From assembly GCA_963783305.1 (NCBI GenBank), contig CAWAMW010000006.1:136490-200489 (forward strand): a stretch of 64,000 nt of DNA. Reading direction: 5' to 3'. Source of the stretch: an uncultured Gemmatimonadales bacterium. Its GTDB lineage: Bacteria > Gemmatimonadota > Gemmatimonadetes > Longimicrobiales > RSA9. The notes under the pieces were generated by a model. The model had not been told where the DNA came from and made no database searches. It worked only from the letters and a program-made list of their open reading frames with translations. Shown in pieces: positions 54,624 to 64,000 of the stretch; the first letter of the stretch is position 1, and each line of letters opens with the position of its first letter. The position numbers and the translations under genes were made by a program.

Positions 54624-54866
54624 ATGCGCATCCGCACGCTCCTCTTCGCCACGTACCGCGACCTCGCCGGCACGGACACCTTCAATGTGGAGCTGCCGGA
54701 CGGCTCCACGGCGGGGGACCTCGTCGCGCGACTGCGGACCAAACAGGGCCTCGATCGCATCCCTTCCGAGCCCGCGCTGGCCGTCAACCAGGTCTACGCA
54801 CCGCTCTCGACCGGCCTCGCCGATGGCGATGAGGTCGCGCTGCTTCCGCCCGTGGCCGGCGGATGA
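54624..54866 (+). CDS. moaD: molybdopterin synthase sulfur carrier
   Basis: GDEVALLPPVAGG C-terminus. Confidence 0.92.
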   Translation: MRIRTLLFATYRDLAGTDTFNVELPDGSTAGDLVARLRTKQGLDRIPSEPALAVNQVYAPLSTGLADGDEVALLPPVAGG

Positions 54867-55300
54867 GCGAACGCGCCTGGATCACCCGGGATGCCATCGA
54901 TCCCGGCTCCGTTCTCGACCGTGTCGGCTCGGCCAGGGATGGCGCCGCGCTCCTTTTCGTGGGCGTGGTGCGGGACCACAACGACGGCTCGAGCGTAACG
55001 GGCCTCACCTACGAGGCGTATGACGAAATGGCGTCGCGGGTGCTGGACGAGATCGCCGGCGAGGCGGCGGAGCGGTTGGGGACGCCGAGGATCGCGGTCG
55101 TCCACCGGGTGGGCGAGCTGGAGGTGGGGGAGGTGAGCGTGGCGATCGCGGCTTCGAGTCCGCACAGGGCGGAGTCGTTCGACGCGACCCGCTACGTCAT
55201 CGAGGAGATCAAGAAGCGCCTGCCGGTGTGGAAGAAGGAGCACTACGAGGAGGGGGACGCGGCGTGGCTCGCGGGCGTGACCCCATCGGTGGACCGGTGA
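54863..55300 (+). CDS. moaE: molybdopterin synthase catalytic subunit
   Basis: FVGVVRD, YEAY, HRVG, PHR, PVWKKE. Confidence 0.94.
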   Translation: MSERAWITRDAIDPGSVLDRVGSARDGAALLFVGVVRDHNDGSSVTGLTYEAYDEMASRVLDEIAGEAAERLGTPRIAVVHRVGELEVGEVSVAIAASSPHRAESFDATRYVIEEIKKRLPVWKKEHYEEGDAAWLAGVTPSVDR

Positions 55301-56280
55301 TGCGCGACCCGCTCGGACGCCGCATCGAGTACCTGCGGATCTCCGTCACCGACAAGTGCAATCTGCGCTGCGTGTACTGCATGCCGCTGCACGGTATGCC
55401 CTGGCTTCGACGGGAGCAGCTGCTGAGCTACGAGGAGATCCGCGATATCGTGGCCACCATGGCCGCGATGGGACTCCGGCGGGTGCGAATCACGGGTGGC
55501 GAGCCCCTCGTGCGCCGGGACGTGACGAACCTCGTCGCCCTGCTGGCGGAGGTATCGGGGATCGACGACATCGCGCTGTCGTCGAACGCCGTCCTGCTGG
55601 GCGATATGGCGCGCGAGCTGCGGGACGCGGGTGTGAACCGCATCAACGTGTCGCTGGACTCGCTCCGCCCCGATCGCGTGGATGCCATCGCCCGGCGCCC
55701 CGGCTCCTTCGACCGGATCATGGATGGGCTGGCGGCGGCCGAGGAGGTGGGGTTCTCGCCCATCAAGATCAACGCGGTCATCATGCGAGGCCGCAACGAC
55801 GACGAGATCGAGGACTTCGCGCGCATCACCCTGGAGCGGCCCTGGCACGTCCGGTTCATCGAGGTGATGCCAGTGGGGGAGAACCTGGACGTTTCGGCGA
55901 ACGAGTACATGCCCGCGAGTGCCATGCTGCGGAGGGTCCGGAGCATTGGCGAGCTGGAGCCCGTGCAGGGGCCCCCCGGCAACGGACCGGCCACGTACTA
56001 CCAGTTCCCCGGAGCGCCGGGCACGGTGGGCGTGATCACGCCCATGAGCCACAACTACTGCGACACGTGCAACCGCATGCGGCTCACCGCGGACGGGCAG
56101 CTCCGGCCGTGCCTCTTCGGCGAGATCCAGACCAACCTCCGCGACCCGCTCCGGGCGGGAGCCGCCCTGGAGCCGCTCATCGAGGAGACCCTCAGGATCA
56201 AGCCGGACCGACACAACCTGGTGCAGGGAAGCGACGTCGGCTCGGGCGGACTCCTGGCGTTGTCCCAGATCGGTGGGTGA
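55300..56280 (+). CDS. moaA: GTP 3',8-cyclase
   Basis: CNLRCVYC, TGGEP, CDTCNRMR, PCLF, C-terminal IGG. Confidence 0.95.
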   Translation: MRDPLGRRIEYLRISVTDKCNLRCVYCMPLHGMPWLRREQLLSYEEIRDIVATMAAMGLRRVRITGGEPLVRRDVTNLVALLAEVSGIDDIALSSNAVLLGDMARELRDAGVNRINVSLDSLRPDRVDAIARRPGSFDRIMDGLAAAEEVGFSPIKINAVIMRGRNDDEIEDFARITLERPWHVRFIEVMPVGENLDVSANEYMPASAMLRRVRSIGELEPVQGPPGNGPATYYQFPGAPGTVGVITPMSHNYCDTCNRMRLTADGQLRPCLFGEIQTNLRDPLRAGAALEPLIEETLRIKPDRHNLVQGSDVGSGGLLALSQIGG

Positions 56281-56296
56281 GCACGGCGGCGTCGCG

Positions 56297-56325
56297 TTGA
56301 CACCCCCCTGAGCCCCCCCTACGTT
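56297..56325 (+). promoter_or_regulatory. putative sigma70 promoter for mdh-sdh operon
   Basis: TTGACA-17nt-TACGTT. Confidence 0.65.
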
Positions 56326-56368
56326 GCCGTTGCTGAGCAAAATTCCTACGAAAAAGCTCGAGGCAACC

Positions 56369-57295
56369 ATGGTCGGCAAGATAACGGTCGTCGGGGCGGG
56401 TCACGTCGGGGCAACCGCCGCACACAGCGTCGCGCGTAAACACCTCGCCCGCGAGGTGGTGATGGTGGATATCGCGGAGGGCATACCGCAGGGGAAGGGT
56501 CTCGACATGTACGAGACCTCGCCCATCGAGGGGTGGGATGCCCGGATCACCGGTTCGAACGGCTACGAAGCGTCGGCCGGGTCGGACATCGTGATCATCA
56601 CCGCGGGGCTCGCACGGAAGCCGGGGATGAGCCGGGACGACCTCCTCCAGAAGAACGCGGAGATCGTGCGGGAGGTCTCGAAGAACGTGAAGGAGACATC
56701 GCCGGACGCGATCCTCATCATGGTCTCGAATCCGCTGGACATCATGGCGTACGTGGCCAAGGAGACCACCGGCTTCCCGCGTGAGCGGGTGATCGGGATG
56801 GCGGGTGTGCTGGACACGGCGCGATACCGGACGTTCCTGTCCATGGAGATGGACGTGAGCGTAGAGGACATCCAGGCTCTGGTGCTTGGCGGCCACGGCG
56901 ACAGCATGGTCCCCGTGGTGAGTATGACCACGGTGAGCGGGATTCCGATCACGCACTTCATCGAGCGCGGTCGTCTCGAGGAGATCATCGAGCGGACGCG
57001 GAAGGGCGGCGGCGAGATCGTCGGCCACCTGAAGACGGGAAGCGCGTATTACGCGCCGGGAGCGGCGTCGGCGCAGATGGCGGAGGCCATCGTGCTGGAC
57101 AAGAAGCGGATCCTGCCGTGCGCGGCGTGGCTCGAGGGCGAATACGGGCTGGACGGTCTGTTCCTGGGGGTGCCGTGCAAGCTCGGCCGGAACGGCCTGG
57201 AGGAGATCATCGAGGTGGACCTCACGGACGAGGAGCGCAGCGCGCTGAAGAAGAGCGCCGCCGACGTCCGCGAGACCATGTCGACGCTGGGCTGA
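56369..57295 (+). CDS. mdh: malate dehydrogenase (LDH-like)
   Basis: [22 protein letters not shown]. Confidence 0.95.
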
Positions 57296-57304
57296 GGCGC
57301 GGAC

Positions 57305-57999
57305 ATGCCACAGACCGTGACGACCCCGATGTCGCGAACGTCCATCGGCAGGAAGCTGCTGATGGCGGGCGCGTCGATCCTTCTCTTCGCCTTCGTCGTG
57401 GGGCACCTCGCCGGGAACCTGAAGATCTTCCTCGGCGAGGGCAGCTTCAATCATTACGCGGAGTGGCTGCGGGTGGCGGGGACGCCACTGTTCCCCGAAC
57501 AGGGAGTCCTCTGGGTCGCTCGCATCGTGCTGATTGCGGCGCTGGGCGTCCACGTGCTCGCGTACGTGGATCTCTGGCTCCGTAAACGGCGGGCGCGGTC
57601 GGTCTCCTACAAGAAGTACGATCCGCAGGTGTTCAGCTGGACCTCACGGACCATGGCGTGGGGCGGGATCGCGATCTTCGCGTTCATCGTCTTCCACCTC
57701 CTGCACCTGACCACCGGGGACGTTCAGCCCGACCTGGCGTACGAGTTCCAGTACGGCAACCCGTACCAGAACGCGCTGGCGGGCTTCAGGGTGTGGTGGG
57801 TGACCGCCTTCTACGTGGTGGGCGTGGTCGCGCTGGGCATGCACCTGTATCACGGTCTGTGGAGTGCGCTCCAGACGTTCGGCATCAACAACCCCAAGTA
57901 CAACCGCTTCCGGAGGCCGACGGCGGGGGTGATCGCGGTCCTGATCACCCTCGGCTATCTGTCGATCCCGTTGAGCGTCATGATGGGAGTGATCGGCTG

Positions 58000-58000
<1 letters not shown>
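57305..58000 (+). CDS. sdhC: succinate dehydrogenase cytochrome b558 subunit
   Basis: Five TM helices with His ligands (HLAGN, HLYHG). Confidence 0.9.
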
Positions 58001-59913
<1,913 letters not shown>

Positions 59914-60013
59914 GGAGTGCCCTGCGGGCACGGGGGGCTCGCTTCGCTCGCGGAGGGGTCGCTTCGCTCCCGGCGGGGCGCTTCGCGCCCGGAACTACTG
60001 ATACGGGGATCTG

Positions 60014-60775
60014 ATGAGACTGAAATTACATATCTGGCGCCAGGCGTCGCGGGCGGAGAAGGGGGGCTTTGAGACGTACGATCTCGACGACGTCTCTGTC
60101 TCCATGTCCTTCCTGGAGATGCTCGACGTGTTGAACGAGCAGCTGATCAAGGAGGGGCGCGACCCCGTGGCCTTCGACCACGACTGTCGCGAGGGCATCT
60201 GCGGCACGTGCGGCATGATGATCAACGGCGTGGCGCACGGCCCGTGGAAGCAGACGACCGCCTGTCAGTTGCACATGCGGGCGTTCGAGGACGGGGACGA
60301 GGTGTGGATCGAGCCCTGGCGCGCCGACGCGTTCCCGGTCCTCAAGGACCTGGTCGTCGACCGTACCGCATTCGACCGGATCATCCAGGCCGGCGGGTAT
60401 ATCTCGGTCCGCACCGGCTCCGCGCCGGATGCCAACGCCATCCCGGTGCCCAAGGACAACGCGGAGCTGGCGTTCGACGCCGCCACCTGCATCGGCTGCG
60501 GCGCGTGCGTGGCCGCCTGTCCGAACGCGTCCGCCATGCTGTTCACTTCCGCGAAGGTCAGCCACCTCAACCTGCTGCCCCAGGGACAGCCGGAGCGCAA
60601 TTCGCGCACGCGCGACATGGTGGTCCAGATGAACTCGGAGAACTTCGGCCACTGCACGAATCACGGCGCCTGCCAGGAAGCGTGTCCGAAGGGGATCAGC
60701 GTGGACTACATCGCCAAGCTGAATCGATACCTGATGCGTTCGGCTACCGCGCGGCCCGAGGCGGGCGTCGGGTGA
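60014..60775 (+). CDS. sdhB: succinate dehydrogenase iron-sulfur subunit
   Basis: [33 protein letters not shown]. Confidence 0.96.
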
Positions 60776-60875
60776 GTAGGAGGCAGGAGTAGGAGGCAGG
60801 AGTAGGAGGCAGGAGTAGGAGGCAGGAGTAGGAGGCAGGAGTAGGAGGCAGGAGTAGGAGGCAGGAGTAGGAGGC
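60774..60875. repeat. perfect 13-bp tandem repeat GAGTAGGAGGCAG x ~7.8
   Basis: Directly visible. Confidence 0.95.
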
Positions 60876-61382
60876 GATCCGCTAACCTATTCCGATCCAT
60901 TTGGCCTCTGTCCTGATCCGAACGACCCCCTCTGCACGGTTACAAATTTTGCTGCGGGGTTTGGGGACGCAATCACTTTCGGCCTCACACGTGGTGCCAG
61001 ACTCGCCATGGGCACTGATGGCCAGGTAGACCGCGGTAGCGTGGCATTCGGTGCAGGAGCAGTCACTGGTGTAGGCACTGGAGTCGCGTTAGCCGGAGGA
61101 ATTGCACAGGCAGGTAAAGCTGGCTTTTCCACACTCACTTCCGCAGGCAGTCGAATATCTGGCAGCGCACACCGTCTCGCCACAACGGCAGGTGGCCGGT
61201 TTGCGAAAGGGGCAAGTAATGGTTTTGCTTCAACAGCTCCTGGGTTTCCTGGCCAGGTCGTCGGTGCAACGATACCGGAGAAGGCGGGCATTGCCGTGGG
61301 GAAAGCAGCAGGGTGGGCCGCCAAGAGCCCAGAGCAAGTGGGAGCAGTATTGGAGGCCGTCCGTAGAATCTTCCAGGAGTAG
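60870..61382 (+). pseudogene. orphan Rhs C-terminal (toxin tip) module
   Basis: In frame upstream of the ORF at 61008: GGDPLTYSDPFGLCP, matching the Rhs core-end motif PxxxxDPxGL, followed by a Gly/Ala-rich tip; no Rhs core or start upstream; lower GC. Confidence 0.75.
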
Positions 61383-61384
61383 CC

Positions 61385-61918
61385 ATGGTGTACGTGTTAA
61401 TCGTCGCGGCAGTGATAGTTGGCGGGGTGGGCCTATTGGTAATTCTTGACCAATTCCCGGCCAAATATCGTAACCTCGACACCCCTCGGGTTCGTGCACT
61501 CTTGGAATTGCTCTATGTCAGGGGGACGGATCAGGGTTTTTTGCAGTTCAAGGGGAAGCGTTACCGGGACGGCTTCCGGGTCTACAAAGTGGTGCGAAGC
61601 ATAGACGATGTGGTATTTGCTTTCGACCTTCCGGACGAAACTCGTCGGGCTGTAGCGCATGAGAAGCTACTTCAGCTATTTGAATTGCATGGGTGCACCG
61701 CGGTTGAACCAGGGAAGAGCTCTGAGAGCCGGATAGCGATTTGCCCACCTATCGTTCCCCAGCTGGTGGCAGTCACCGAGGCTGTGATTCGCGACGGCTT
61801 GGATGAGGACCCGGAGAAAGGATGGGTGGCATGGGTCGAGAAGACTGCCCCAGATACCTCAGCCCATCCGGGGTTCTCCTCCCGTCCAAAAATACCCGGA
61901 TCAGGCCTGTACGGATGA
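61385..61918 (+). CDS. hypothetical protein with N-terminal TM, putative cognate immunity protein
   Basis: Starts 2 nt after the Rhs-tip stop; lower GC. Confidence 0.6.
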   Translation: MVYVLIVAAVIVGGVGLLVILDQFPAKYRNLDTPRVRALLELLYVRGTDQGFLQFKGKRYRDGFRVYKVVRSIDDVVFAFDLPDETRRAVAHEKLLQLFELHGCTAVEPGKSSESRIAICPPIVPQLVAVTEAVIRDGLDEDPEKGWVAWVEKTAPDTSAHPGFSSRPKIPGSGLYG

Positions 61919-61938: not shown

Positions 61939-62495
61939 AGAGCCCGGCGCGATCGAGTCTCAGATCGGAGGCAGCTGACTTCGCTCCTCAGCCGGATGGC
62001 CGGATCCGCGCCGGGCTCTGCTCGAAGAAGGGGGTGGAGCCCGGCCGGATCAATTCTAACGTCGGAGGCGGCTCAACTGGCCCCTCAATATGTTGTCTCG
62101 GATCTCGACCGGGCTCCTGATCCAGGATAAGCATGGCCTTCTGTCTCGTCCAGAGTTTTGCCCACCGAGCCCCGGTGCGATCGAGTCTGGCGCGGGAGGC
62201 CGCAGATTCGCGCCTCGAGCCGTTTTGTCGGATCCGCACCGGGACACCGGCGGGCATACTCCACCCCCGCGCGGCGGGCGTCGGTTTCACCCGCCGCGGA
62301 GACAACTACCTCAGTTTTCAAATCGCACCCAGCGGACGCGAGCGCCGCGTAGCTCGATACTAACAAGTCCTCGGAGGCGCCTGTGCTGCTGGCCCTCGAC
62401 ACGCCTTCATCAGAGACTGGGCGGCCTCTCGGTCGGGGTGGGCGATTCGGAGTCGGAAGCCGGCCTGTGCCGCTTCGATATAGTCTGTCCGCCCC
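61939..62495. ncRNA. array of structured repeat units, putative bridge-RNA guide loops of the adjacent IS110
   Basis: Units at 61939-62019, 62036-62117, 62171-62243, 62344-62425, 62435-62495 share an outer stem, an inner GAGG/GAAG...CCTC/CTTC hairpin and two variable loop strands. Confidence 0.6.
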
Positions 62496-62547: not shown

Positions 62548-63819
62548 CTACCGCACGGCCGCGAGTGGACGATTGCGACGCTTCCGCTTCGGCGGTTCCG
62601 GCGTCCAGGTGCGGCCGTCGCGGGCCACCGAGTAGAGCAGGCCCAGCGCCCGCCGGCTCACCGCCACCAGCGCCGGGATCTTCTTCTTCGGCCCGTGCCG
62701 CTCCACGTACGCGTCGAATTGCTTTCGGTACAGTCCGTCCTGCTGGATGAGGCGGAGCGCCAGCATGTACATGCTCCTGCGGAGCACCGGTCGCCCCCGC
62801 TTCGAGATGTGGACCTCGCCCACCCTTTTCCCGCTCGAGCTCTCCACCAGCGAAAGCCCGGCCACCTTGTAGACCTGCTGCTTCGTCTCGTACGCCTTCG
62901 GATCACCAACGGAGCCCAGGAAGACGGCGGCCGTGACCGGCGCCACCTCCGGCACCGAGAGCACGCTCTCCGAGGCGTCCACTCCCTCAAGGGTCTCGAC
63001 CATCCACTTCTCGACCGTCCGGAGCTGCCGATTGTAGAGTCGGAGCCGCTCGATCAGGAGCGGGATCTCGTCCTTGGCGGCCCCTTCGCCGCTGGCGAGC
63101 CCCACCGTCCGCTCCGCCGCCGCCCTCAGCTCCTGGTACGTCTCCTCGCCCAGGTGATTCCGGCTCGCCTTCTTCATGACCCGGAGCACCGACCGCTTCG
63201 GTGCTGCCAGGAACGCGGCGGGAGAGGGGAACGCTTCCAGCAGCGCGATCGGCGTCTTCTTGCCGAAATCCTTGAACCGCCGCTCGAACTCCGGCCAGAC
63301 CGCCTCGAGGACGCTCTTGAGTCGCGTGATCGTCGCGCGCCGCTCGCCCGTCAGACGCTCTCGCGCGCTCACCAGCGAGCGCAGGTCGGCGTACGCCGGG
63401 TCGAGGAAGGCGAACGCCACAAAATTGCCATTGGCCACCAGGTCCGTGATCACCATGGCGTCCTTCGGGTCCGTCTTCAGCGCCTGGTTGTGGACGACCT
63501 CCTTCCACCGCTTCGAGTGCGCCGGGAGGACCGTCACCACCTGGTAGCCGAGATCGGCCAGGTAGAAGGCGAGGGTGAAGCCGTAGATCCCGGCGAACTC
63601 GATCCCCACTATCGTCTGCTCGGGCGTGGCCTCCGGGGCCGCGGCCTGGATGTACTCCACCGCGGCGTCGAAGCCATCGCGATCGGTGCCGAATGTGAAC
63701 GATCGGCTGTCGGCCTCGTCCCGGGGGCGGACTACCAGCGTGTGGGTGTACTTGCCCGCGTCGACGCCGACCACGGCGGCTGCGTCCAGGGCACGACGGC
63801 GCTTGCGATACCGGCTCAT
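62548..63819 (-). mobile_element. IS110-family DEDD recombinase/transposase
   Basis: VGVDAGK (D), GIEF (E), KTDPKDA (DD), C-terminal GLSLVESSSGK...ISKRGRPVLR serine domain; AGGAGG RBS; intact 423-aa ORF. Confidence 0.93.
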
Positions 63820-64000
63820 GGGATTCCTCCTGAGGGGGTGGTAGATTTTGAAGATCTGCAGGACTGCTCTGGGTACAGCTGGAGGGCAAGACGGAGGGCC
63901 ACGCCCGTCTACGGCTACGCGTACGCGCGGAGCCGGGCGCGTGAGAGGAACTGCGGGGATGTGAAAAGAGACGCCGGAAAGCTCTATCGGCTTATAGGCG

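Follow-up and report, generated by a model that had tools for sequence, protein, structure and literature searches.

What brings an IS110 recombinase, a row of three related hairpins and an Rhs-type reading frame without a start of its own together behind a succinate dehydrogenase gene? The stretch analysed (64,000 nt, hereafter the window) belongs to an assembly of 4.35 Mb with ~69% GC (17 contigs, 95.96% complete) and ends where its contig ends. We consider it quite probable that the features near that end form a single bridge element carrying an Rhs tip, a likely immunity gene and extra target loops, whose RNA-guided insertion would swap Rhs tips in frame.

The affiliation of the enzyme is given by its domains, DEDD (PF01548) and Transposase_20 (PF02371), and by residues D20, E74, D117, D120 and S329, which are invariant among 50 recombinase sequences.

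62548..63819, minus strand: IS110 recombinase, 423 aa (NF033542, 191 bits, cut-off 140)

The assembly holds one copy of it; a second, partial IS110 match (34% identity) lies near a contig end (G000 C16:799949-800582). TIGR-Tas arrays are made of short tandem guides with a unit of ~36 nt, whereas the hairpin units here lie 97 and 131 nt apart and the NF052498 score is 26.5 bits against a cut-off of 100. No relative was found among viral contigs, and the best match among plasmids reached 31% identity. As in IS110 bridge systems, the internal loops described below correspond in sequence to the halves of target and donor, on opposite strands. Like the IS1111 group and its seekRNAs, as far as the available text of PMC11187229 describes them, the family has a long non-coding region downstream of tnp and inserts with a specific orientation at a conserved site. 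Subterminal inverted repeats of 7-17 bp define that group; the repeats seen here are short and imperfect (CCTAT..CCGAT, with a gap). Insertion here would swap the C-terminus of a host protein in frame instead of disrupting the gene.

Downstream of the recombinase follow loop A, a conserved loop B, the TTTGAAAA box and three hairpin units (targets are given in the corrected register explained below).

62443..62488, minus strand: loop A, predicted target loop in canonical position, with GA instead of AG at the core position
62360..62411, minus strand: loop B, predicted donor-binding loop; left strand ...AAGGCGT-GT, right strand ...GTT-AG (reads CT-AAC)
62313..62322, minus strand: conserved TTTGA(C/A)AA box between donor loop and array
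62167..62247, minus strand: gene-proximal unit, predicted target loop; corrected target AAAACGG-CT-GGCGC
62229-62218, minus strand: gene-proximal left strand GACAAAACGGCT; right strand CGCGCC-AG-ACTC, then GATC
62037..62116, minus strand: middle unit, predicted target loop; corrected target ACAACAT-(A/C)T-AACGT
62099-62088, minus strand: middle left strand GAGACAACATAT; right strand GACGTT-AG-AATT, then GATC
61940..62018, minus strand: gene-distal unit, predicted Rhs-type target loop; corrected target CCATCCG-(G/C)T-CAGAT
62001-61991, minus strand: gene-distal left strand GGCCATCCGGC; right strand GATCTG-AG-ACTC, then GATC

The letters and the three minus-strand units are as a preliminary description of this DNA gave them. 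Each unit has the form stem-GATCC-(11-12 nt)-YGAGG-hairpin-CCTCC-(12 nt)-GATC-stem on the minus strand, is 71-81% alike to the others in pairwise comparison, and folds better than its shuffles (z -2.84, -5.38 and -2.57). Relatives provide 96 distinct outer stems, in which 87.5% of positions are paired; when partners are shuffled the figure is 74.3% (maximum 77.3%), and each column shows several kinds of pair. The layout is common to the relatives, 67 of 68 loci having one to four units (two in 41, three in 13, one in 12, four in one and none in one); these counts are a lower bound set by the parser, exclude loop A, and cover loci that include the best 80 of 184 metagenome matches. According to the available text, the IS621 bridge RNA has a single loop for the target and a single one for the donor, whereas here one donor loop goes with up to four target-type loops. 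Judged from sequence, the three hairpins have the properties expected of target-binding loops in an IS110 bridge system, with a predicted RNA. Loop A is possibly degenerate and may have decayed once the array took over; its core position reads GA throughout the L014-L020 sub-clade, AG in L058 and L078, and AC in L057.

The TTTGA(C/A)AA box is a possible -35 element with which no -10 was found, and a promoter scan detected no consensus promoter for the array. The box persists in relatives at 38-41% identity (L007, L013), and could be either an array promoter or a leftover of an older element end. One terminator-like site (61906-61894) scores no better than shuffles, and Rfam gave no match.

The register in which the loops would be read as guides was tested on 65 distinct rows including the window, some of them taken from the top 80 of 184 metagenome matches. 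A downstream junction is present in 46 rows, and 32 served for the left side after 14 were dropped because they carry the donor end of another element there instead of a target. The right strand, proposed earlier as core plus 5 nt, was borne out, with a mean match of 5.58/7 and at least 6 in 22 of 36 rows; no permutation in 2000 (mean 4.28) reached this, although the rows are related and non-independent, so that this and the other permutation figure overstate significance. The fixed AG of the right strands likewise goes beyond chance: in 34 of 36 rows the core predicted from the loop is the one found at the donor-side junction (GT 19, CT 12, CC 2, GC 1), and the dinucleotide at this position is usually common to the units of one locus and different between loci. 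CT, which had been put forward as the core, is thus the donor core of the window's sub-clade and not that of the family, where GT is commonest. Given this agreement between loop and junction, AG on the right strand stands for the donor core CT, and the AC behind it fits donor positions 6-7 (GT), a reading that parallels the post-exchange and handshake pairing of IS621 in the available text of PMC11208158 and PMC11208160.

The left strand is another matter. Its guide had been placed at positions 1-7, directly followed by CT, which yields three 14-mer substrates; this model shares with our reading the right-hand register and the CT core, and IS621 left guides do pair over 7 nt plus the first core base (PMC11208158, available text). 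Positions 1-7, however, match on average 2.22/7 with at least 6 in none of 32 junctions, whereas 7 nt ending 2 nt before the YGAGG stem match 5.38/7 with at least 6 in 18 of 32 (permutation mean 4.08, observed value reached in 0 of 2000; other offsets 1.8-2.7). In L033 and L058 the contradiction is direct, positions 3-9 matching 7/7 and positions 1-7 only 3/7. The proposed left register is therefore off by 2-3 nt and the three 14-mers are wrong; none has an exact match in the genome, and we find the model scarcely credible. Six hybrids of their halves gave one exact match (GGCCATC-CT-GGCGC, contig C11), which is GC-rich and taken as chance. The pattern c-N7-C is present in the left strands, yet its C is not a core base, since relatives often have G or A there, and it falls within the corrected 7-nt guide. 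In 21 of 32 rows the target-side junction has, as its first core base, the nucleotide that comes next after the left guide; for the 12-nt left strand of the middle unit the register was taken from L053 and L078. What survives is the idea of bridge-RNA-type guides, not the substrates as written: all three units are read as target loops and the donor loop is separate, its full corrected donor being TAGGCGT-CT-AACCT. That the targets include an Rhs core motif, and that the element has cargo, are both beyond what the preliminary description saw.

Which natural sites, then, do the loops match? The donor-loop left strand AAGGCGT agrees at 6/7 with the left donor TAGGCGT (LD). For the right donor end (RD), the first 3 nt are those foretold by the right strand of this loop in 19 of 20 distinct pairs. 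The gene-distal unit has an orthologous loop with an identical left guide in L014-L018 and L020. Free of any bias from the Rhs motif are the non-Rhs sites, drawn from 39 rows with both junctions, which match one non-Rhs loop at 12/12 non-core positions in L033 and L058, at 11/12 in L025 and L044, and at 10/12 in L047. Many Rhs-type matches are imperfect, the weak ones (of 7+5) including L015 4+2, L087 4+2, L091 1+5 and L024 2+4. The non-Rhs targets may be ends of other mobile elements; a tRNA was found beside such sites at only 1 of 21 loci. Those at L033:9327, L025:2987, L044:2802 and L047:2629 are short palindromes or lie among direct repeats (TGTGAG...CTCAC; GCAGA...TCTG), and the L033 neighbourhood has Fic, IS3-type (rve) and AbiTii genes.

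Within the assembly itself the corrected targets of the window's loops have no exact match, and neither the middle nor the proximal loop could be given a convincing natural site; the proximal-loop target is likely non-Rhs. The middle loop has a 13/14 match at C5:19866, within a coding gene, where 0.06 matches would be expected in the exact form and a larger number with the pattern used; an exact match in an alternative, unsupported register at C2:45559 has 0.05 expected. Both were set aside as chance. The sequence at C7:601558, which we take from its consensus to be dif-like, matches the middle loop poorly. This dearth of local sites, together with an array without a consensus promoter, is what would be expected if the three hairpins were unused duplicates or REP-like repeats and loop A and the donor loop alone were functional. 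We hold that to be very improbable, as in nearly all rows the best flank match belongs to the array loops of the relatives and not to loop A, including complete, locus-specific matches to non-Rhs sites.

The limits of the element and its flank are as follows.

60774..60875, plus strand: 13-nt tandem repeat GAGTAGGAGGCAG following the stop codon of sdhB; part of the host flank and not of the element
60875..60881, plus strand: left target half CGATCCG, 6/7 against the left guide of the gene-distal unit
60882..60888, plus strand: core CT and right donor end AACCT; the donor-loop right strand predicts CT-AAC
63995..64000, plus strand: left donor end TAGGCG, interrupted by the contig end
60882 to about 64003: IS110 bridge element, ~3.1 kb, ends from relatives and donor loop

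The insertion lies behind sdhB, at a non-Rhs site in agreement with the left half of the Rhs loop, and CGATCCG with its two preceding bases matches the left guide of the gene-distal unit at 8/9. The core dinucleotide CT read by the loops occupies 60882-60883; the second end lies beyond the contig. In L014, L015, L017, L018 and L020 that end reads TAGGCGT-CT followed by the right target; the window contig stops 3 nt before it, leaving the far junction, and with it the right target half, unseen. The right donor end AACCT also occurs in L014-L018. In a genome of the same genus (G089) no element was found behind sdhB, and the flank was too divergent to yield the right target half. The GAGTAGGAGGCAG repeat forms 13 runs genome-wide and is thus a dispersed family, some runs of which form inverted pairs, with one at the end of contig C7. 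By ORF translations (Pfam for the last gene only), 54863-60775 is a housekeeping cluster of molybdopterin, malate dehydrogenase and succinate dehydrogenase genes.

L014 and L015 have a common block of 3242 nt at 98.7% identity, running from GT-AACCT, just after ...ATCCG, to TAGGCGT-CT, beyond which flanks and tips differ at both predicted junctions. L045 and L046 repeat this pattern at both ends, one copy lying in an Rhs-type site and the other not, and L017 and L018 differ at the left junction. In these last two (L017:1638-4461, L018:11188-14002) array and tip are separated by ~1.2 kb more DNA than in L014-L016. From the shared blocks in relatives and the donor-loop matches it follows that the element extends from 60882 to about 64003, with the tip and its downstream gene inside.

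60882..61382, plus strand: Rhs-type C-terminal tip, 166 aa, without a start of its own; 12 codons open upstream
61385..61918, plus strand: 177-aa gene starting 2 nt behind the tip; likely an immunity gene from its position

The PxxxxDPxG motif spans the junction (60879-60905) as P-L-T-Y-S-D-P-F-G, and the end sequence CT-AACCT encodes L-T of the Rhs motif G-D-P-L-T-Y-S-D-P-F-G-L-C. The tip is a predicted toxin without a Pfam family, and the 177-aa gene has no family match either; for both, atlas matches stayed below 0.9. A search for longer relatives of the window tip gave one weak match. No TIGR03696 match, indicating an Rhs core, was found in the assembly (95.96% complete, 17 contigs) or in the window, so the tip here is without a known shell.

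Relatives supply the shells. Those that bear a name are Gemmatimonadales and Longimicrobiales, which makes Gemmatimonadota the probable phylum of the host. The loci compared comprise 3 from genome contigs, 9 from 6 of 400 class-level genomes and 78 from the best 80 of 184 metagenome matches; the clade was chosen by query alignment, and the recombinase tree is a quick version showing breadth only. Across them the Rhs motif x-x-Y-x-D-P-F-G-L is encoded antiparallel to the recombinase, ~1.2-1.7 kb downstream of its gene and, in most cases, a second time 0.1-0.4 kb upstream of it. Of the 46 loci that reach 45% identity and have 1750 nt of flank or more, drawn partly from the top 80 of 184 metagenome matches, 45 have an opposite-strand tip junction 0.9-3 kb downstream; a few loci are one element present in more than one record. 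In one sub-clade (L057, L059, L060, L061 and L089) the parser finds only non-Rhs loops, and both the Rhs loop and the tip have possibly been lost there; L059 has no tip junction within 3707 nt downstream. At 15 loci the tip is in frame with at least 200 open upstream codons that end in a Pro codon. All seven long ORFs scanned (from 6 of these 15 fused loci and the head of the L040 chain) have TIGR03696 above cut-off, ending at the junction, and five have YD repeats.

The tips themselves are diverse. Clustering at E below 1e-8 sorts 115 tips, from loci that include the top 80 of 184 metagenome matches, into 63 clusters, and 70 tips scanned against Pfam gave 15 with a match at E <=0.01, 8 of them above cut-off (the families above it being Ntox24, AHH nuclease, colicin E5 RNase, M23, M15_4, YkuD, PT-TG and eCIS_core), and 55, the window's among them, with none. 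Despite the 63 clusters, the cargo tips are near-uniform in length, at 147-176 aa from the core. A co-oriented ORF of at least 70 aa follows the tip in 49 of 54 loci, often overlapping its stop (a raw count, without a control), and open tips of 147-176 aa with a following gene are found across the clade down to ~50% recombinase identity.

Could all this be an ordinary selfish IS110 element for which the Rhs motif is a landing site, with a tip captured passively and a fusion that is incidental and unselected? Such elements capture neighbouring DNA via half-matches (10.64898/2026.08.14.744561; 10.64898/2026.08.31.748434; available texts), and ours often lies outside rhs, in an assembly where no rhs core was found. 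We nevertheless regard this as unlikely. The donor loop reads the tip-side end (19/20), which places the tip inside the programmed boundary; tips remain open, with a following gene, over the range of recombinase identity just given; and the end sequence preserves the Rhs reading frame.

The neighbourhoods of the relatives bear on a further alternative, namely a domesticated recombinase that stays in place and, in the manner of an integron or shufflon, exchanges tips locally, so that recombinase and tip are not one mobile unit. Near-identical recombinases do occur with different tips (L014-L016 against L017-L018), and tips do lie in local chains: L027, L029, L037, L040 and L048 have chains of the form core-tip-recombinase-tip-recombinase-tip, that of L040 being Rhs (1346 aa)-tip-recombinase-tip-recombinase-tip-recombinase-tip with recombinases at 37-53% identity to the window's. 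Every link of a chain, however, has its own recombinase, one block of tip, array and recombinase occurs between unrelated flanks (L014/L015, L045/L046), and non-Rhs insertions exist, the window's included, which makes local shuffling quite unlikely. Displaced tips beyond the far end start at the core, without a core fragment; a weak search found no uninterrupted allele of the displaced tip of L014. Shufflons exchange C-termini site-specifically and integrons stack cassettes at one site, each with a resident tyrosine recombinase and sites read by protein; here, by contrast, RNA-type loops would read the site and each cassette brings its own enzyme.

If tip, array and recombinase are thus one mobile bridge element, its cycle might run as follows. 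The element, bounded by TAGGCGT-CT (left donor) and CT-AACCT (right donor), ends recognized from the blocks of relatives and the donor-loop match, would be excised, probably as a circle joined at TAGGCGT-CT-AACCT by analogy with IS621. Joins of the LD-core-RD type occur in L003, L050, L062 and L087, which stacking would also explain, and no back-joint was found in the contigs of sequencing runs X1, X2, X3 and X7, which cover the recombinase and array, not the tip region; one X1 contig extends beyond 64000. A recombinase dimer on the donor loop would then pair with a dimer on a target loop (cf. the available texts of PMC11208160, PMC11208158 and PMC13626964). In the available description of the IS621 structure, target and donor loop of a complex are supplied by separate RNA molecules, so free-standing target hairpins could work. 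The gene-distal loop, whose sequence matches the codons for D/N-P and V-x on the two sides of the insertion point, would bind there, and insertion would take place at the boundary between the Pro and the Val/Leu codon of the Rhs core motif, fusing the new tip to the host shell and pushing the resident tip downstream. Because the right donor end spells x-T-Y-S-D-P-F-G-L, as in the Rhs motif, the reading frame would be preserved on insertion and the new junction would resemble a fresh target, so that the newest tip would sit on the shell with older pairs behind it, in the order of events that we infer; fusions and chains of this kind are found in relatives. The other loops would provide alternative non-Rhs landing sites, as matched in four to five relatives. 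Half-match insertion is described for IS621 (10.64898/2026.08.31.748434, available text), and the window copy behind sdhB would stay silent until its next move.

Measured against known systems, the machinery is that of an IS110 member. With IS621 (PMC11208160, PMC11208158 and PMC13626964, available texts) the family shares the DEDD and Tnp domains, a 7 + 2 + 5 site with a shared core, a left guide identical to the top strand and a right guide complementary to it, and handshake bases behind the core. It differs in having the non-coding RNA region downstream of the gene, which opposes the donor top strand, and a fixed protein-coding cargo that opens with codons supplied by the donor end. ISEc21, also of IS110 type, targets conserved transposase codons (PMC11187229, available text). 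Like the cargo-expanded IS110 elements in the available text of 10.64898/2026.08.14.744561, ours exceed 1.5 kb with cargo, stack in tandem and use half-match sites, but the cargo there is variable and plasmid-like and here a frame-matched tip; 'toxin', 'Rhs' and 'polymorphic' occur 0 times in the available part of that main text, as does 'Rhs' in that of 10.64898/2026.10.21.760802. Rhs C-terminal displacement likewise has an intact core and tip followed by displaced tips and immunity genes (PMC2935791, PMC5727410, available texts), whereas the displaced tips here have no core fragment, start at the 2-nt core and have an RNA-guided recombinase each. RNA-guided in-frame displacement of toxin tips with a multi-address array was not found in print within the IS110/bridge-RNA and Rhs literature covered, which consists of main texts mostly outside subscription journals; the supplements of bioRxiv surveys could list the clade.

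We think it rather likely that the clade is a dedicated RNA-guided toxin diversifier, in which autonomous cassettes, with a DNA end doubling as coding sequence for the Rhs cleavage motif, would add new tips, in frame, to the Rhs shells of the host and bank old tip/immunity pairs in polarized chains, while a reprogrammable array made up of separate target loops would switch between arming sites (rhs) and sites for parking or travel. The route of Rhs tip displacement and the pool of new tips have been an open question since the 2009 model, which postulated a circular carrier (PMC2935791, available text), and the clade is a concrete candidate for that carrier, with enzyme, guides and junctions readable from sequence. 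For genome engineering, it offers a natural case of one donor loop serving several independent target hairpins, and guide/site pairs with the cores GT, CT, CC and GC. For the IS110 family, it would give a biological role beyond selfish spread, the in-frame exchange of protein C-termini.
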